From Candidatus Heimdallarchaeota archaeon B3_Heim (GTDB lineage Archaea > Asgardarchaeota > Heimdallarchaeia > Hodarchaeales > Hodarchaeaceae), in NCBI GenBank assembly GCA_003144275.1, contig NJBF01000035.1:1-32000 (forward strand): 32,000 nucleotides of DNA, given 5' to 3'. Positions 9,006-22,166 of this stretch are shown in pieces. Made by a program: the position numbers and the translations under genes. The stretch's first letter is position 1; each line of letters opens with the position of its first letter. The notes beneath the pieces are model-generated. The model had not been told where the DNA came from and did not search any database. It was given only the letters and a program-made list of their open reading frames with translations.

Positions 9006-9485
9006 TTAAAATAGTAAAGAAAGGGAAGGAATACTAATTTGTATTTCTTCGTTTATTTCAATAATTGAAAAGGGAAGGATTTTCTTTTGGGTTAATATTG
9101 GGAAATCCTTGTAAAATTCTTTATACTTATCATTGGATATTACAAAAGCTTCAAATTTTTCTGCGAAATCAAGGATAAAATAATCATCATTCCAATTTGA
9201 AGGAGTGTAGAAAATTCTCCCAGAGTTTTTCAAATTTTGAAGAATTCTGGAATCTTTAAATCTAATTTCGAAATATTCAGGGAGGATTATGAATATTTTA
9301 TTTGTAAGCTTTTCAAGGTACTTTACTAGGACACTGAACCTCATGAAATTAAATTTAATTCGTTTATTGTTGTAAAGGATATTTGCCCCATCAACAATAA
9401 ATGATATGCTCTTCTCTTTCTCCCACTTTTTCTTGAGATATTGTGTTATCTCATTAAAATCTTTCACTATCGACATAATGGTCAC
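9006..9485 (-). CDS. NYN/PIN ribonuclease of Zc3h12a (Regnase)-like type
   Basis: IVDGANI, NDDYFIL and VISNDKYKEF acidic tetrad. Confidence 0.8.
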   Translation of the reverse strand: MTIMSIVKDFNEITQYLKKKWEKEKSISFIVDGANILYNNKRIKFNFMRFSVLVKYLEKLTNKIFIILPEYFEIRFKDSRILQNLKNSGRIFYTPSNWNDDYFILDFAEKFEAFVISNDKYKEFYKDFPILTQKKILPFSIIEINEEIQISIPSLSLLF

Positions 9486-9762: not shown

Positions 9763-9780
9763 TTCGTCGTCAAACCAGCC
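9763..9780 (+). repeat. CCAGCC-core site 1 (left arm plus core)
   Basis: ttcgtcgtcaaa-CCAGCC. It shares cgtcgtcaaaccagc with site 2. Confidence 0.7.
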
Positions 9781-9866: not shown

Positions 9867-9973
9867 TGAAGCTGGTGGGATTTGAACCCACGCCCCCCCT
9901 TGAGGAACGTGTAAATGTTGCTCAAAATTGCACTTTCCTCAAGGAGGGTGTTCTGCCACTAAACTACAGCTTC
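9867..9973 (-). tRNA. tRNA-like gene with a ~37-nt insertion in the anticodon arm; identity unresolved; no encoded CCA
   Basis: Acceptor stem GAAGCTG/CAGCTTC with A73, D-arm GTTT-AGTGGCA-GAAC, T-arm GTGGG-TTCAAAT-CCCAC. The anticodon stem CCCTC/GGGGG is extended by CTTGAGGAA/TTCCTCAAG. Confidence 0.75.
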
Positions 9974-9975
9974 TC

Positions 9976-11010
9976 TTAATCATATTGGAATTTCATATAT
10001 TCCATGATTTCGTGAGATTTAATATTATATTGTTCCTCGGCATATTTAATAAATTTGTTCTTGAATCTCTTCTCTTGATTAGGATCTTCGAAAATATATT
10101 TCTTCTTTGTTTTATATTTTTCAAGCACGTGAGCTATAATCGTATCTTTATCTAAAGCTTCTAATACATTTTTATCAATTATAGAAGATAATTCTCTTAT
10201 AAGGACTAATATTTCAACCATTTCTGCTTCGTCCATCTTTTCTTTAATCATTTTTGCCTCTTTTTTACCCTTATTTGCTTCTCTTCCGTTCTTTTTCTGC
10301 ACTACCTTATGCATAATCGGTTTAGCAAAATTTATGTTGGAAAACCTTTTCTTTTTCTTATTTCTTCTAATTTCACTCCAATATTGATTAAGCAAAACAC
10401 CTTTAGATGAGATTAATTCTGCAAGGGATTTTGTTTGCTTTTTTCTATCATGGACGATATGATTCCTCCTTTTTCTAATATAGTCATTTGTGTCAATTAT
10501 ATTTTGATCAAAGCATCTTTGATCTTCACAATCCCTTTCTGGGAAGAGATAATTACTTAGAGATAATAATATGGTATTACATTTCTTTTCTGGATTTCCT
10601 TCTTGAGAATTCGGGTTGACAATTGAGTTTGTTTGAGATCCTGTCCGTATCTTCTTAATGAATTTGAAGAGCGACAATAAATAGTCTTCAAAAATTGAAT
10701 ACGTAAAAACGAAGGTAGATTCAAATGTAAATTCTCTCGATTTACTAAAATCGGTGTCAAAATCATTAAGTTTTACATTATATTTCTTAGAACGAGCTAT
10801 AGAGGAAAAACAATCCTCGGTTAAACAATCAGGTTGAGACTTGATTAGAACCTCATTCTTCATTATGAAAAAGTCTTGAACGAACAGTGTTAATTGGAGA
10901 TCTCTGTTGATTTGTGAAATTTTTTTTCTTAATTTCAGAATTTCTTTGGATCTCATTTCTTTCTCATCAACTTCAAATAATATGTGTAATTTGATAATGT
11001 AAAAGCTCAT
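9976..11010 (-). CDS. Putative HEPN-domain protein
   Basis: All-helical appearance, YSIFEDYL followed downstream by RRNHIVH (Rx4H HEPN motif). Confidence 0.6.
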   Translation of the reverse strand: MSFYIIKLHILFEVDEKEMRSKEILKLRKKISQINRDLQLTLFVQDFFIMKNEVLIKSQPDCLTEDCFSSIARSKKYNVKLNDFDTDFSKSREFTFESTFVFTYSIFEDYLLSLFKFIKKIRTGSQTNSIVNPNSQEGNPEKKCNTILLSLSNYLFPERDCEDQRCFDQNIIDTNDYIRKRRNHIVHDRKKQTKSLAELISSKGVLLNQYWSEIRRNKKKKRFSNINFAKPIMHKVVQKKNGREANKGKKEAKMIKEKMDEAEMVEILVLIRELSSIIDKNVLEALDKDTIIAHVLEKYKTKKKYIFEDPNQEKRFKNKFIKYAEEQYNIKSHEIMEYMKFQYD

Positions 11011-11956: not shown

Positions 11957-11973
11957 AACGTCGTCAAACCAGC
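11957..11973 (+). repeat. CCAGCC-core site 2, left part (split by IS)
   Basis: aacgtcgtcaaa-CCAGC is followed immediately by the IS left end. Confidence 0.8.
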
Positions 11974-13252
11974 CAGTTCTTCGTATCACCTCCTTGAAAA
12001 CTCCTCCTGTCTTCTAAAAAGTGCTTGATGCCATGATGTGACAATGAATTCGCAGAAATCGTTCGCTGAATAAACAAAATCGGCTCGACATCGCCGACTA
12101 GCTGATTTTAAGATGTGAATCGGTGATTTAAAGTAGGCCCAGAAATTACACAACCAAAATGCAATGAGAACAAGAATGAATCTAAGAGTTGGGTTTTGAG
12201 AACAACTAAAGATTTGAAATCGGTGCATCTGACGATAATAGGTCTCAATCGTGAATCTTCGACGGTAAAGTAAAGCTATCTTCTTTCCTGAAAGATTACA
12301 TGTAGTGGGAACAACTAAAGCTATAACACGAGTACCCTCTTGACACAGAGCAAGTTTTACTGGAAATCTCTCGCGGGTGTGACCTTTATTCAATTTATAA
12401 TTCACGATTAGGGCATCCCCTTTTTGAAGTAACTTTTCTTTATGTTTTTGTACTAAAGGTTTGACTCCCGAATTGACACGTCCACGAATAATGAAGAAGA
12501 CCTGTTCACTAACAAGCCACTTAATGAAATCCCAGTTATAGAAGCTACCGTCCGCCAATATTCCAACAATTCGTTCTTGAGTGAGTAAAGGCATCAAAAG
12601 GTTCTGAGCTGTCTTGAAAACAGAATGCTTTGTAGGAACGAGTTGAACCCCTAACGTGATTGGTTCGGGTGCATTTATCCAAATAACCGTTATATACTGA
12701 TAAAATTTATGAGTACTGGCCTTTTTCTTACCTTTACAGATGTAAGGAGAAACCGTCCTTGCATAGTTAGGATCAGTATGAAAATCGATCGCTAACAACA
12801 TTCCTTGCTTTCTTGCGCTTTGAAAGTTCTCGGGAAGACTTTCAAGAAACTTAAGAAAGCCGATTTGTTGTGAGAGCGTAATTTCCTCAACAGAATTTGT
12901 TCTTAACCATGCCAGGGTAGCTTCCCCAGAGGGAATTGGGAGATGTAGCTCGCGAAGATCTCGAGCCTTCCGAGAAATGGAGGTTCGATCGAGTGCGGTA
13001 AGTAAAAGTAATTTTAACCTGCCTTTCATAGTAAACGGTGATTTAGCAGGAATGGGGGTTGACAAGAATTGAAATCTATCCAACCAGCGTACCATAAAGT
13101 TTATAAGAGTCGGAGTTTTTCTAGCTTTACGTGGCGGAAAGCGAGGTAACTTAAGTTTGGTCATTTGAGTGATTCCTCGCTGGAATCCACTTTTAAAGGT
13201 TTCCCCTCCTTTTTTTTCATCCCGCTCAAAAAAATGAAGTTACGAAGTACTG
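11974..13252 (-). mobile_element. Complete ISH3-family insertion sequence, 1279 bp
   Basis: Terminal inverted repeats cagttcttcgta (11974-11985) and tacgaagtactg (13241-13252), 11/12 match. The 4-bp target duplication CAGC is at 11970-11973 and 13253-13256. Confidence 0.9.
11986..13164 (-). CDS. DDE transposase, ISH3 (IS4-like) family
   Basis: LAIDFH, ILADGSF, YRRRFTIETYYR (Y-x2-R-x3-E). Confidence 0.9.
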   Translation of the reverse strand: MTKLKLPRFPPRKARKTPTLINFMVRWLDRFQFLSTPIPAKSPFTMKGRLKLLLLTALDRTSISRKARDLRELHLPIPSGEATLAWLRTNSVEEITLSQQIGFLKFLESLPENFQSARKQGMLLAIDFHTDPNYARTVSPYICKGKKKASTHKFYQYITVIWINAPEPITLGVQLVPTKHSVFKTAQNLLMPLLTQERIVGILADGSFYNWDFIKWLVSEQVFFIIRGRVNSGVKPLVQKHKEKLLQKGDALIVNYKLNKGHTRERFPVKLALCQEGTRVIALVVPTTCNLSGKKIALLYRRRFTIETYYRQMHRFQIFSCSQNPTLRFILVLIAFWLCNFWAYFKSPIHILKSASRRCRADFVYSANDFCEFIVTSWHQALFRRQEEFSRR

Positions 13253-13269
13253 CAGCCTTTGACGGAGTT
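13253..13269 (+). repeat. CCAGCC-core site 2, right part
   Basis: CAGCC-tttgacggagtt, identical to the right arm of site 3. Confidence 0.8.
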
Positions 13270-13331
13270 CATAAGTTAGAATAATTACTTGAGTAGGGAG
13301 TGTGTTGAATCCAATCCTATTCGCGAAATTC

Positions 13332-13619
13332 CTAGAACCATTTACTAACCCATTTGTTCAGCCATCTTATCTCAAATAATATTTTCCCCCAGTGCCAATA
13401 TCTACGTGGCTTATAGATTTTGACTTGCGGTACAGGTTCCGCATAGAAATTCCCTCTACCAAAACCAGCTTTACCCCCTCCAATTTCGACAAAACAAGAA
13501 CCAAAACCATTGTATCGTGTGGTTTTACCTTTTCCAGTTATTTTAACGGCAAGATTATGGGCAAGTACTTCTCTTTGATAATGAGCGAATACTCCTGCTT
13601 TGGGAAGTGGTTTCCCGAG
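13332..13619 (-). pseudogene. C-terminal remnant of a sulfide:quinone oxidoreductase-like FAD oxidoreductase
   Basis: GKPLPKAGVFA...GSCFVEIGGGKAGFGRGNFYAEP...WHWGKILFE is the typical C-terminus. The FAD-binding N-terminal ~300 aa are absent. Confidence 0.75.
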
Positions 13620-13721
13620 TTTACTACTTTTTCTAAAATTTGGGTACACATGAAGATTTAAAAATATTCAGTGTTCTGATTGTACAGTTGTAGCCTTTAA
13701 TTCTAAAAGGAGAAAAATAAA

Positions 13722-14309
13722 ATGGAAAATTCAAATATTATAGGAAGCTTACTTTTGATTATACTAGTGCCAACAACAATGTTCGTTGGTATGCCTATTA
13801 TTTATCCAAGTCTTCAAGCTGACCCCAATTCAACGGGGATTTTAATCCAGGAAAAACATAAATCTGTGAATACAATTGCAGCAATTTCCGATTGGGCAAC
13901 GATTTAATATTGTGATGTTCAGGATACTCATTTGGCAATAACTATCCAAAATAATTCTAAAATTCTGGCAATGTTTTCTTCTCCGTACTTATTAGTTATA
14001 TCAGACGACTTTGGACCAAATGAAGCATTAATTTTTAATATCGCATTGAATATTGGTACCGGTACAAAACGAGATACACGAATTGAATATACAGAATTAG
14101 GAAATGATCTAGCCAGTGCCAGACATATTGGAGGAAATATGTTTATACTCTGTGAAACTGAAAATTTACCTGCTGGGACTTATAATGTGACTGTATCTTG
14201 GATTTCCAAATCTACAGTGAATAATCCTGTTGGAACTAATCAATTACAATTTTCATCCATGTTTCAAAAACCCCAACGAACTTTATTGGTTCAAGAAATT
14301 AAAGGTTAG
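13722..14309 (+). pseudogene. Membrane-anchored protein gene interrupted by one in-frame TAA
   Basis: ORFs 13722-13907 and 13932-14309 are in the same frame, and the 8 intervening codons are open (YCDVQDTH). The only stop is TAA at 13905-13907. The N-terminus has a hydrophobic anchor. Confidence 0.7.
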
Positions 14310-14533
14310 TTTATTAGTTATTTTTAATATGAGAGGGTTTTTCCCTTACTTTTTTTATAAATTACTCAAGCAGATTCTTAAATTTTCATTAGATTTATGA
14401 TATTGATATGATCTGATCAGTAATAAATTTCTGATTAGTAATAGATATACAAAAAAAAGGTTATTGGTTCCGAAAATAAAGATTTACTACTATCTCGTCC
14501 CTAACGAAAGGGAAATGAGTATCTTACTAAAAA

Positions 14534-14700
14534 CGGCGCTGCTCCAGTGAGTAATCCGGCTTCTGTTCCCTCTGTTTCGTTACCTTTACAGAGTTCCTGA
14601 CATTAACCTTAGCGCTACTCTCCACAATCTCCGAAGAGATATGTTTTTCAGCTTGCATTCGCTGAGGATGCTCGTTTCACCGTTTCCCTATTCTTCCTCT
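14534..14700 (-). ncRNA. rnpB: 3' half of an archaeal type A RNase P RNA
   Basis: In order on the minus strand: ggtgaaacgagcatcc (CR-III-like), gaatgcaagc, a hairpin atctc-TTCG-gagat, gctaaggttaatgtc (CR-IV-like), a P19-like stem ctctgt/acagag, aacagaagccggattac (CR-V/P4), then a T-run. No GAGGAAAGUCC-type CR-I is found upstream. Confidence 0.7.
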
Positions 14701-14710
14701 GAAGATTATC

Positions 14711-14848
14711 TTATCATCTGTTACCAGTGACTTCACCGCTTCTACTGAGGAACAGACAGCTTCTATGAGTGAAATGACCGATACAGCTCAAAATCTAACT
14801 GAAATGGCTTTAGAATTGTCTAGTCTGGCCTCAAGGTTTAAAGTTTAA
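14711..14848 (+). pseudogene. C-terminal remnant of a methyl-accepting chemotaxis protein
   Basis: Translates LSSVTSDFTASTEEQTASMSEMTDTAQNLTEMALELSSLASRFKV-stop (EEQ methylation helix and FKV end). No MCP-like sequence lies upstream. Confidence 0.75.
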
Positions 14849-15044
14849 ACCTTCCTTCTCTCTTTTCTTTATTATTTCATTTTCAACGGAAATGTTTGAC
14901 GAATTTTCAGAACTAACCTATTCGGGATATTCTGGGCATCTTTTGATGATATTTAAATGAGAAAGCCTAGTAGGTATTCAGAGGTAAGTTTATCTCTAAT
15001 TACAATCTCTTTATAGGTTTTTAACTTCAATAGAGGATAAGTAG

Positions 15045-15401
15045 ATGTTTCGGAATCTCCCAATAATAAAACCGATTGAATATACTAATAGTCATCTGAA
15101 ACCTGTTGAAAAACAAAATATTCACCTTTTTTGTGTACAAACCCATCCTGATAAACTCCACCCCATTCCTTTCTCTTCAGAACCATTGAATGAGGATATG
15201 GTTTATCTTTTCATTAATGATGTCTTGCGAAAAATCTTTTTGTGGGTTGGTACGACTGCTTCGATCCGATCCAAATTCGTTGGCGCACATTCAGCTATCG
15301 TACTCCAACGAAAAACAGGGATTACTTATCGAGTAGAAAATATTGATGAGGATCATGAGTCGGCTGACTTTCGTAGGACTATATCGGTATTTGAAGCCTA
15401 A
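15045..15401 (+). CDS. Single gelsolin/villin-like domain protein
   Basis: LNEDMVYLF...IFLWVGTTASIRSKFVGAHSA...VENIDEDHESADF fits the gelsolin-repeat pattern. Confidence 0.8.
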   Translation: MFRNLPIIKPIEYTNSHLKPVEKQNIHLFCVQTHPDKLHPIPFSSEPLNEDMVYLFINDVLRKIFLWVGTTASIRSKFVGAHSAIVLQRKTGITYRVENIDEDHESADFRRTISVFEA

Positions 15402-15463
15402 TTAACCACAGAGATTTCTTTCTACAAAAGTGGGAGCTTTGCGTTGTTTATATTAGAAAAAGA

Positions 15464-15513
15464 ATATACTCGGGTATATATTTTTCTTATCTAAACCAGC
15501 CTTTGACGGAGTT
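15464..15513 (+). repeat. CCAGCC-core site 3
   Basis: ATATAC-tcgg-GTATAT, 16 nt, CCAGCC, tttgacggagtt. Confidence 0.8.
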
Positions 15514-19234: not shown

Positions 19235-19274
19235 GTATATACTTTTGTAATCTAAACCAGCCATGGACGGAGTT
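19235..19274 (+). repeat. CCAGCC-core site 5
   Basis: GTATAT, acttttgtaatctaaa, CCAGCC, atggacggagtt. Confidence 0.8.
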
Positions 19275-19440
19275 CAGACATTACCAAATTTATTCAATCC
19301 GATTTTGTCTCCATTATCAAGGCATTACTCCTGATAGTTACCTTACATCATCTTAGAATTATTTCATCTAATCTGACTTTATTACTTCATTCGACTCTCT
19401 TTTCTATTATAATGAGAATTTTAGATCCATATAGGTTTAA

Positions 19441-19525
19441 ATGTTCTCAAATGTGAAGATTACCAATTTTATATGTTCTCAAACGTCAAGAACATAAACC
19501 TTATATGTTTTCAAGGAAACAATCT
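19441..19525 (+). promoter_or_regulatory. Three direct repeats at a 32-bp period; the central one is palindromic
   Basis: atgttctcaa (19441), atgttctcaa (19473; ATGTTCT-N9-AGAACAT), atgttttcaa (19505). Confidence 0.6.
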
Positions 19526-19571
19526 CATTAAACATTGATAAGTGCTTAAAAGTGCTCAAGAGTTGGTTTAA

Positions 19572-20480
19572 ATGACTGAACAAATAGTTCTTGAAATCAA
19601 TAATCTCAGCAAATATTATGGAAAACTCCTTGCTGTAAATAATGTAAATATTACTGTTAAAACAGGAACAGTTTACGGATTTTTAGGCCCAAATGGAGCA
19701 GGAAAAACCACCACTATTAGAATTATTCTTAGTATCCTCAAACCATCAAGTGGGGAGGTAAAATTATTTGGAATTCCTGTTGATCGATCTAATGTTCAAA
19801 TTCATGATAGAATTGGATATATTCCCGGTGATGTAGCTTTATATGGACATTTAACTGTCAAACAAATGCTTGATTATTTTGCTTCTCTTAGATCAAATCG
19901 GCCCTCATCGCGAATGGAAGAAATGGTGAAATTATTTGATTTGGATGTTACAAAAAATACTAAAACGTTAAGCAGGGGCAATAGGCAAAAGGTTGCCATA
20001 GTTCAAGCGTTTATGCATGATCCTGATTTTTATATTTTTGATGAACCTTCGAGTGGATTAGATCCTTTAATGCAACAGGTTCTATATGATTTAATCACTG
20101 AAGAAGTAGAAAATGGAAAAACTTTTTTTATTTCTAGTCATTATCTAGGAGAAATCCAAAAAATTGCTAATCTAGTGTCAATAATTCGAGAGGGTGAAAT
20201 TATCTCAACCATGGATGTTTCTAAACTTGACCAACAGGTAGTACAGAAAGTCCATATTGATTTTAAATCCGAGGTTAATCCGTCATTACTTCAGGATCCG
20301 AATATAACGGTATTATCTCAGGACAAAAATGAGTTAATTTTGATAGTAAAGGGTGATTTTCATACTTTTCTTGAAAAAATTTCCAGATTTCCCATAGAAA
20401 GATTTTATGCACCAGAACCGTCTCTTGAAGACTATTTTATGCATTTTTATGATCTTAAGAATAGATCTGGGGGGAAGTAA
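19572..20480 (+). CDS. ABC transporter ATP-binding protein (exporter type)
   Basis: GPNGAGKTT, LSRGNRQK, IFDEPSSGLD, SSH. Confidence 0.95.
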   Translation: MTEQIVLEINNLSKYYGKLLAVNNVNITVKTGTVYGFLGPNGAGKTTTIRIILSILKPSSGEVKLFGIPVDRSNVQIHDRIGYIPGDVALYGHLTVKQMLDYFASLRSNRPSSRMEEMVKLFDLDVTKNTKTLSRGNRQKVAIVQAFMHDPDFYIFDEPSSGLDPLMQQVLYDLITEEVENGKTFFISSHYLGEIQKIANLVSIIREGEIISTMDVSKLDQQVVQKVHIDFKSEVNPSLLQDPNITVLSQDKNELILIVKGDFHTFLEKISRFPIERFYAPEPSLEDYFMHFYDLKNRSGGK

Positions 20481-22166
20481 ATGAAGGTTTTTTTTGATAG
20501 CATCAGACAAGAAAAAGGATTAATGCTTGCTTTTTTATTCTTTTCAACAGTATTTATCGTATTAATGATCATGATTTATCCAGGTGATGAAGCAGCTGTT
20601 GAACAAATCACTGGTTTAGAGGATATGGGAGACTGGGAGGCGATTTATGGGATCGTTTATGGAGAGGGAGGTGAATATCGATTCTGGTTGGCATTGTTTC
20701 TTTTTAGTTATATTGGAATTTTATATACAGCAATACCTGCACTCGTGGGTACAAACGTCTTTTCAAAGGATAATGATGATAATACAATTGATTTATTAAT
20801 GTCCAATCCGATAACCAGAAGAAAAATCTTACTAGAAAAAATGTTAGCTGTCTTATCATTGTCTTTTGGATCGATACTTTATTTATTTCTTGTTATTTAT
20901 CTTTTATCACTTGTAATTGGCCAAAATATTTCCATTGAATTATTATTTGCATCATGTATTCAATTATTTATACTACTTGTCTTTATAGGGCTAATCAGTA
21001 TCTTATTTGCTGTTTTATTCTTAGATTCTGGTCGTGCAAAACGTTATATTGGTATTATAATTGTAGGATCATTCATAATTGGTCTTATTGTGTTATTTTC
21101 TGAAGAATTAGAATTCCTCAAATATTTTCAAGTTTTCTATTATTATGATAGTGCATCTACAATTCTAAAACCTTCTATTGGACAAGTTGTGTGGGATAAG
21201 GCTCTTTATCTTCTTATTTTCTCTATCCTAATATTTGGAATAATCCTTGTAATAAATGATCGGAAAGATCTTATTCCTCATTTTTCTCATGAAATTGACG
21301 AAAAAAAATCTAAAGAAAAAGGAATTCCATTGCTTTTCTTTTTTGTTGGAAGATTCCAACACCGATTTCCCAGTTTTGTTGAGCAACTTCAATCAGATAA
21401 GGCATTCATTTACCTGTTTGCATTGTTATTGACAATTTCAGGTCTTGTTACACCATCAATGTATCCTGGAGATGAAGCGTGGGTCGGTCTTTCAAAGACC
21501 TATAGTTCAATGGATGTCTTGATGAGCGCAATTTTACGAGATCATGGTGTTGCAAACTCATTTATTGGATATATTGCTACTGAAGGTTTTGGAGAGTATT
21601 TCCTTTATTCAGGAATAATTTCAATGTTTTTGGGCTCAAAAATTATTATTAGAGATCAGAAATCAAACACCCTAGATTTATTATTTGCACATTCAAGATC
21701 CACCTCTAAAATATTAAAAGAAAGGTTAGCTGCGATAACCTTAGAAATTTTTACCGTCTTTTCATTAAATTATATTGCATATATTGTAGGTATAAGTTTA
21801 TATGGAAACGGTTTCAATTATATTCCAATTTTGGGAATTGGAATCTTTCTTACATTTCTAATAGTAATTACAATGACATTTTTAGTTGTATTGCTTTCCA
21901 TATTCATAAAAAATCCCAGTAAAGCAATTGCGATTTCAGGAATGACTTATTTTGGAATTCTATTGGTATTTATGCTGGCATATACTATTGATCAAATTAA
22001 GTTCCTCTCCACTCTGACCCCCTTTTACTGGATTGATAGAATTAGGATCCTTTATGAAGAAACAATTATTTTCGAAGATATTTTTATCATTAGTCTATAT
22101 TTGTGCTTTATTTGTATTATATATTTTATCTGTATTAGGAAAATTAATGGCCGTGAATATTTCTAG
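20481..22166 (+). CDS. ABC-2 permease with an internally duplicated membrane domain
   Basis: Two similar halves (MIYPGDE / MYPGDE; NTIDLLMSNP / NTLDLLFAH). Confidence 0.85.
   Translation: MKVFFDSIRQEKGLMLAFLFFSTVFIVLMIMIYPGDEAAVEQITGLEDMGDWEAIYGIVYGEGGEYRFWLALFLFSYIGILYTAIPALVGTNVFSKDNDDNTIDLLMSNPITRRKILLEKMLAVLSLSFGSILYLFLVIYLLSLVIGQNISIELLFASCIQLFILLVFIGLISILFAVLFLDSGRAKRYIGIIIVGSFIIGLIVLFSEELEFLKYFQVFYYYDSASTILKPSIGQVVWDKALYLLIFSILIFGIILVINDRKDLIPHFSHEIDEKKSKEKGIPLLFFFVGRFQHRFPSFVEQLQSDKAFIYLFALLLTISGLVTPSMYPGDEAWVGLSKTYSSMDVLMSAILRDHGVANSFIGYIATEGFGEYFLYSGIISMFLGSKIIIRDQKSNTLDLLFAHSRSTSKILKERLAAITLEIFTVFSLNYIAYIVGISLYGNGFNYIPILGIGIFLTFLIVITMTFLVVLLSIFIKNPSKAIAISGMTYFGILLVFMLAYTIDQIKFLSTLTPFYWIDRIRILYEETIIFEDIFIISLYLCFICIIYFICIRKINGREYF

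Follow-up and report, generated by a model that had tools for sequence, protein, structure and literature searches.

A probable horizontally acquired remnant of an RNase P RNA gene, abutting a chemoreceptor gene tail, in a Hodarchaeota accessory module

How does half of an RNase P RNA gene (rnpB) come to lie head to head with the last codons of a chemoreceptor gene, and what does the host genome use for RNase P? We addressed this question for the window, by which we mean the whole stretch of DNA analyzed here, i.e., the first 32 kb of the 41.3-kb contig C84 of genome G000. G000, the genome carrying the window, is a 3.95-Mb Asgard MAG in 103 contigs, with an estimated completeness of 94% and an estimated contamination of 3.9%; the other G-numbers used below are genomes of relatives, and C-numbers are contigs. 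Apart from foreign patches, contig C84 was 90-98% identical to the sister genome G013 and was therefore assigned to the G000 lineage. The coordinates of the features in the window, and of related arrays in other genomes, are collected in Table 1.

Table 1. Features of the rnpB-remnant module in the window and rnpB-fragment arrays in related genomes.
Feature	Location	Strand	Evidence or remark
IS element, left module border	11960-13252	-	1293 bp; DDE_Tnp_1 ORF 11986-13164, Pfam E 5e-11
Right half of IS-split dif-like site and G004:C284-like patch	13253-13622	.	13343-13622 87% to cassette start
56-nt AT-rich promoter-like element	13623-13678	+	93% to C22:5132-5187
3' flank accompanying the rnpB remnant	14114-14539	.	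93% to G004:C215
5'-truncated RNase P RNA gene remnant (3' ~197 nt)	14540-14736	-	RF00373, nhmmer tail profile, G004 identity
C-terminal MCP gene remnant (36 codons and stop)	14738-14848	+	tblastn-type matches to relatives' MCP C-termini
Intact gelsolin-repeat gene	15045-15401	+	Pfam Gelsolin E 2e-6
Xer/dif-like site closing the module	15493-15510	+	core AAACCAGCC, then TTTGACGG
rnpB-fragment arrays	G007:C52:468069-489917; G011:C49:227-9143; G009:C1:2631388-2634031; G002:C82:3343-7979
rnpB-fragment arrays (contigs only)	G012:C66; G014:C84, C114, C452; G017:C69

The first-pass annotation had read the ordered motifs of an archaeal rnpB 3' half from this region, and these motifs were found on the minus strand: a cUUCGg hairpin (ATCTCTTCGGAGAT), a second hairpin, CR-V (ACAGAAGCCGGATTAC) and the 3' strand of P1. 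The CR-V pattern (ACAGAA..GG.UUAC) together with the P1 3' strand was recognized in ACAGAAGCCGGATTACTCACTGGAGCAGCGCC. The covariance model RNaseP_arch (RF00373) confirmed the reading for the isolated piece only. When 14530-14742 was scanned by itself with cmscan, the model matched with 36.4 bits (E 2.7e-9) over positions 126-288 of 288 and the match was flagged as cut at the 5' end, while the remnant within longer sequence gave no match, even at E <= 10, since an internal truncation is not modelled. Annotators should take this as a caution, because a covariance-model scan overlooks an RNA gene with an internal truncation unless the piece is scanned by itself. The score of the isolated remnant was below the gathering score of 84 bits that marks a full-length member. 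A profile of the rnpB tail, searched with nhmmer, found exactly two copies in G000, of which the window copy had an E-value of 3e-31. The homology did not end near 14700 as first proposed; it extended to 14736, where it stopped at model position 126, leaving positions 1-125 (the 5' strands of P1-P4, and CR-I) missing. What was retained comprised some S-domain return strands, the cUUCGg hairpin, a P15-like hairpin, the CR-V/P4 3' strand and the P1 3' strand. The first-pass annotation had also reported the absence of the 5' half with CR-I, and this held not only for the window but for the rest of G000, apart from an intact gene on contig C91. Since the promoter, the CR-I/P4 5' strand and the catalytic core are all missing, the remnant would be incapable of acting as an RNase P RNA, and we assume that it is transcriptionally silent. 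The remnant is a pseudogene fragment rather than a member gene of RF00373, and it should be annotated as such.

One reading offered earlier for the half gene, a loss of RNA-based RNase P from this organism, was refuted by the intact gene and by the protein subunits. A full-length rnpB was located at C91:21523-21882 with 128 bits against the gathering score of 84, and an inventory of Rpp21, Rpp29, Rpp30 and Pop5 recovered each of the four in G000 above the Pfam cut-offs. RNase P activity is supplied by the resident C91 gene together with these four proteins. The resident gene was 94.5% (5' part) and 98.5% (3' part) identical to that of the sister species G013, and its neighbors, a 181-aa ORF and ABCE1, were the same as in G031; ABCE1 begins 93 nt past the rnpB 3' end on C91. 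We also considered whether the resident gene was itself a chimera of a native 5' half and an element-borne 3' half, and rejected this candidate: both halves were 94-98% identical to G013 and ~70% identical to G004 throughout. An NYN/Zc3h12a-type RNase is encoded in the window at 9006-9485 on the minus strand (54 bits); its match to PRORP scored 24.5 bits, below the cut-off of 39.1, and this protein is no evidence for a protein-only RNase P.

The first-pass annotation had also raised, speculatively, a split RNA whose 5' half is encoded elsewhere. In its general form, a transcript of the fragment would work in trans: it could supply the 3' half of a split RNase P RNA, or bind RNase P proteins as a decoy or regulator. 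Within the fragment the helices are unbroken, with compensated changes, and split and permuted genes for a structural RNA, namely tRNA, are known in archaea. A partner for the fragment was nevertheless not found in G000. The only CR-I in the genome is that of the C91 gene; there was no second CR-I or P4 5' strand motif and no 5' half of the fragment's (G004) type; the only other weak RNaseP_arch match in G000 was noise. Moreover, pairing of the fragment's P4 strand (GCCGGATT) with the resident CR-I (TTCCAGCC) would be faulty, G000 has a complete gene of its own, the native promoter is gone with the 5' half, and the fragment was absent from the sister genomes searched. With no second CR-I, no matching 5' half and a P4/CR-I mismatch, the split RNA is refuted at the sequence level, and we regard any function of the half-molecule as extremely improbable. 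For G000 this outcome is reassuring, as its RNA-based RNase P is intact and there is no split ribozyme gene.

The fragment did not derive from the resident gene. Window positions 14114-14736, that is, the fragment plus 424 nt of 3' flank, were 93% identical to G004:C215:1-623. The fragment alone was 94% identical to the 3' part of the G004 rnpB and only 71-73% identical to the resident rnpB. Protein genes beside rnpB were just 67-72% identical between G000 and G004, so the 93-94% identity stands well above the background between the two genomes and marks the fragment as foreign. The duplicate remnant proposed at first pass therefore survives as a remnant and not as a duplicate: it is a xenologous rnpB rather than a copy of the resident gene. 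The accompanying flank contains a terminator-like hairpin of rnpB, an AT-rich spacer and the end of a convergent ORF (13932-14309, +), whose C-terminus is also encoded at G004:C215:2-196. Other lineages with a G004-type rnpB had only ~45 nt of flank in common. Since the G004 contig stops 427 nt downstream of its rnpB, the 424 nt of co-transferred flank is a lower bound.

The substitutions within the fragment were informative as to the state of the donor gene. One hairpin reads CTCTGT...ACAGAG in the window and CTTTGC...GCAAAG in G004, so that two compensated pairs differ, and three further G004-type sequences carried other compensated variants of the same hairpin. P4 and CR-I also covary: the P4 strand of the fragment, GCCGGATT, goes with CR-I TTCCGGCC in G004-type genes, and the resident gene has GCTGGATT opposite TTCCAGCC. 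Judging from these compensated variants and from the P4/CR-I covariation, the donor rnpB was functional at the time of divergence. A chimeric origin of the G004 gene was considered and rejected, as the identities of its 5' and 3' halves to other genomes were congruent and its P1 and P4 strands fit each other; we saw no 5'/3' discordance that would be a sign of an element-borne 3' half in G004. A foreign piece comprising the 3' ~200 nt of a then-functional rnpB and at least 424 nt of flank thus entered the lineage from a species close to G004. The fragment thereby provides a clean and datable record of an exchange of DNA between two species of Hodarchaeota, at 93% identity against a background of 70%.

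On the other side of the joint, the claim of an MCP C-terminus on the opposite strand was borne out, as the plus-strand frame from 14738 matched verified MCP C-termini of the genus. This frame (14738-14848) translates as ASTEEQTASMSEMTDTAQNLTEMALELSSLASRFKV followed by a stop; it has only 60 open codons, with neither a start codon nor a signaling-domain body. In a six-frame search, the 40 residues of 14726-14845 matched ORFs of 350-690 aa at their very C-termini in 14 of the 21 genus genomes, with E-values down to 5e-7 and 45-56% identity. Two of the matched ORFs were checked with Pfam and were true MCPs, having MCPsignal (104-118 bits), HAMP and dCache domains. Searches of Pfam, PDB and a database of 5.8 billion proteins with the 40-49-aa tail peptide gave nothing significant, and a whole-genome scan for MCPsignal (PF00015) gave no match above the Pfam cut-off either for the tail or in the window. 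G000 had no MCP gene above the Pfam cut-off, only the tail in the window and a 94-codon open frame on C82 (C82:105370-105576); chemoreceptors seem to have been lost in the G000/G013 lineage, with remnants left behind. Sister genome G013 had only short ORF matches to MCP, and other members of the genus had several full-length MCPs.

The end of the rnpB homology at 14736 and the start of the MCP frame at 14738 are separated by a single base. One alternative is that the two remnants decayed in place. A whole foreign rnpB with its neighbors could have been acquired, and a later deletion could have taken its 5' half along with most of a divergent MCP gene. Both remnants indeed lack their 5' parts and stand head to head across the single-base gap, and relatives have many MCP genes. 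In G004, however, which has the closest intact locus, rnpB is flanked on its 5' side by the gene for a 371-aa membrane protein and by ABCE1 rather than by an MCP, and nothing in G004 closely resembles the MCP tail at the DNA level. Other unrelated abrupt joints in the module, e.g., at 13622/13623, point to repeated shuffling rather than to one deletion. The deletion between divergent genes that had been suggested at first pass finds no support at the G004 locus, and a single deletion in a G004-like locus was discarded as a simple story, there being no MCP beside that rnpB. Decay in place is, in our judgment, unlikely.

An assembly or binning artefact would also produce such a patch, if reads from a co-occurring organism similar to G004 had been merged with those of G000. 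G000 is a MAG of many contigs with some estimated contamination, the patch is 93% identical to another species, and the 21-mer spanning the junction at 14736/14737 occurred in no other public assembly, metagenome or genome collection. On the other hand, there is no repeat at 14736/14737 to mislead an assembler, the resident rnpB is only ~72% identical there, and the IS at the left border has no other copy in G000 above 79% identity. The contig belongs to the G000 lineage on both sides, and a chimera would need two independent false joins. Given the absence of a repeat at the joint and the common lineage of the two sides, a chimeric joint is unlikely, and an artefact of this kind altogether appears highly improbable.

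We then considered the module in which the two remnants are embedded. The window contains seven co-oriented intergenic Xer/dif-like sites with a CCAGCC core, at 9775, 11969, 15496, 16934, 19257, 25122 and 31377. Five of the seven match an 18-nt consensus with no more than two mismatches, including both borders of the module 13253-15496. Genome-wide the consensus had 28 matches, clustered on C22 and C84. Site 11969 is split by the IS, its other half lying at 13253. The IS thus interrupts a CCAGCC dif-like site. A copy on G013:C201 is 98% identical to it, and in G000 it is single-copy, the three related copies there being 77-79% identical. The putative sites, inverted repeats in the same orientation with a conserved core, flank gene modules in the manner of a cassette array. 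Inside the module, ORF 13332-13649 (minus strand) had no Pfam match. The 56-nt AT-rich element at 13623-13678, which may be a cassette promoter, starts exactly where the homology to G004:C284 ends, forming a second abrupt joint at 13622/13623. Its counterpart on C22, a 6.5-kb contig with 7-8 dif-like sites, lies ~60 nt after a dif-like site of another array. The gelsolin-repeat gene and its upstream region (14909-15429) were 88% identical to G003:C78, and this gene is apparently the only live gene of the module; its presence suggests an Asgard host.

No integrase or recombinase gene was found in the module or anywhere on C84 by a PF00589 (Phage_integrase) scan and Pfam scans of the ORFs; an XerA-like tyrosine recombinase (164 bits) is encoded on G000 contig C27. 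No sequence resembling a dif-like site was present at the 14736 junction within four mismatches. The reverse complement of CR-V has a 9-mer (TAATCCAGC) in common with a variant of the dif-like site, possibly by chance. Elsewhere in the window, ABC-transporter genes at 19407-21000 were 92% identical to G007:C3 and 86% identical to G011:C2, where ~70% is typical; this is another recently exchanged patch, which sets in immediately behind the dif-like site at 19257. At 9867-9973 on the minus strand there was a tRNA match of 53 bits that has 41 nt inserted in its anticodon region; it lies directly after ORF 9976-11010, which had no Pfam match.

We asked whether fragments of this kind occur in other genomes, and searched 83 genomes of the class with a model of the last 90 nt of rnpB. 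More than one copy of the rnpB 3' end was found in 9 of the 22 genomes of the window's genus and in none of the 61 genomes of other genera. The extra copies in G007, G009, G011, G002, G012, G014 and G017 were co-oriented and 33-211 nt long, and all but two short partial ones extended to the rnpB 3' end. They were arranged in tandem downstream of rnpB or lay on contigs from that region. In six to seven of the nine genomes, the fragments separated accessory modules of 1-4 genes (0.6-4 kb) downstream of rnpB; these modules encode a radical-SAM (rSAM) protein with a 436-aa protein, VapBC-like proteins, ABC ATPases, a ClC channel and HTH regulators. The order of the modules differed between close genomes. 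The rSAM module with its trailing fragment adjoins rnpB in G007 and stands behind four further modules in G011, and the ClC module adjoins rnpB in G009 and is ~18 kb further out in G007. Comparison of these positions indicates that the arrays grow at their rnpB-proximal end. In this genus, small gene modules seem to have inserted repeatedly at the rnpB 3' end.

The rnpB locus itself was found in two forms. In the compact form, a 310-aa ORF, a 181-aa ORF, rnpB and ABCE1 are co-directional, as in G000 (C91:19591-23408) and G031; in the second form, rnpB is inverted and carries the module array at its 3' end (G009:C1:2626316-2639707, G007 and G004:C215). Two loci departed from both. At G002:C204:124156-127426, the upstream flank of rnpB is followed by ~3 kb of ORFs (167, 270 and 496 aa), after which come only the terminal 91 nt of rnpB and the conserved flank behind it; this MAG, 83% complete, yielded no full-length rnpB, and its rnpB locus looks 5'-truncated too. 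The G015 gene (G015:C1:754884-755269) reached only 71 bits and so missed the gathering score; its 5' end is AT-rich and aberrant, its CR-I does not fit its CR-V, and the gene may be degenerate or misassembled.

Integrative elements that target tRNA and tmRNA genes leave displaced 3' gene fragments as attL and attR (Williams 2002, Nucleic Acids Res 30:866, as cited in PMC8813620). The same Asgard mobile-element paper, PMC8813620, treats integration at tRNA genes only and RNase P goes unmentioned there, and our literature search for rnpB as an integration site returned nothing relevant. By the standard of att repeats, a 3'-end copy lies downstream of an intact gene in G007, G009, G011 and other relatives. 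In G000, the intact rnpB lies on a different contig (C91) and shares only 71-73% identity with the fragment. An integrase within the element, as expected of an att-type element, was not found. Pfam searches of ~40 ORFs from the window and the arrays and whole-genome PF00589 scans detected no integrase near the rnpB arrays of relatives, and all-against-all clustering of the array ORFs gave no recurrent protein of unknown function and no candidate recombinase.

These patterns suggest a more specific history, in which the fragment is an attP- or attR-like arm of an integrase-less rnpB module that landed in, or was captured by, another array. At 197 nt the window fragment falls inside the 33-211-nt range of the co-oriented fragments that separate modules in the seven relatives named above, and the presence or absence of modules between close genomes indicates insertion at the rnpB-proximal end. 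Furthermore, the flank past the rnpB terminator differs in every G004-type lineage, as expected of an insertion hot spot. Several observations speak against such a scar: the fragment is not downstream of the resident rnpB in G000, no second repeat brackets a module in the window, no recombinase was found in the module or in the arrays of relatives, and the G004 rnpB, whose P1 and P4 strands fit each other, has no 5'/3' discordance. We consider an attachment-site scar quite possible, though short of probable; it refines the explanation given next and does not contradict it.

Taking the evidence as a whole, we think that the locus probably joins two dead remnants, the 5'-truncated end of an rnpB acquired horizontally and the tail of an MCP gene, within a recombination-scrambled Hodarchaeota accessory module. 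As assembled in the MAG, the foreign rnpB piece stops abruptly at 14736 against the last 36 codons of the MCP. The joint would have been made by illegitimate or site-specific recombination within the cassette array bounded by CCAGCC Xer/dif-like sites. That an rnpB 3' end in particular was mobilized is probably explained by its being a recurrent insertion point in this genus: DNA departing from the locus would carry rnpB 3' pieces along, and the fragment in the window is plausibly one such arm. No CCAGCC sites were found in the rnpB arrays of relatives, and the link from an insertion site at the rnpB 3' end to a fragment within a CCAGCC array is therefore inferred.

A broader proposal can be put forward tentatively. 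The rnpB 3' end of this genus may be an integron- or IMEX-like landing platform, set on an essential ribozyme gene, where integrase-less modules stack up in succession and each leaves a 33-211-nt copy behind, and the window fragment may be an arm that moved between species with its module and was captured by the CCAGCC/dif-like system. The comparative patterns in relatives are solid. If the proposal were confirmed, RNase P RNA would join the short list of structural RNA genes that serve as integration platforms, and the arrays would suggest that the archaeal lineage closest to eukaryotes has a recombinase acting in trans and a mechanism of gene capture.

Finally, we compared the pieces of the locus with the known systems that they resemble. 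Relative to archaeal RNase P RNA type A (RF00373), the fragment keeps the sequence and local helices of positions 126-288 and is 94% identical to the intact gene of a relative, whereas positions 1-125, the catalytic core and the promoter are gone. Relative to methyl-accepting chemotaxis proteins (PF00015), the last 38 residues of the tail align with the C-terminal helix of the MCPs of the genus, although only 36 codons are kept and the start codon, HAMP, the signaling hairpin tip and the methylation helices are missing. The module resembles the Xer/dif-like module arrays of other systems, i.e., the pdif modules of Acinetobacter plasmids and the IMEX elements, in that co-oriented CCAGCC sites of the 11-6-11 type bound it, its patches recur at 87-93% identity in another species, and an XerA-like gene is encoded elsewhere in G000; it differs in that the rnpB and MCP pieces themselves are not bounded by sites and their joint contains no site-like sequence. 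Integration at tRNA and tmRNA genes differs from what we describe in that here the target is rnpB, the modules are 0.6-4 kb long with no recognizable integrase, and the copy in the window is of a foreign type and not beside the resident rnpB. It is nevertheless the att repeats at such genes that the arrays of relatives resemble, as their co-oriented 3'-end copies stand in tandem behind the intact gene and bracket accessory genes, with the newest insertions nearest the gene.
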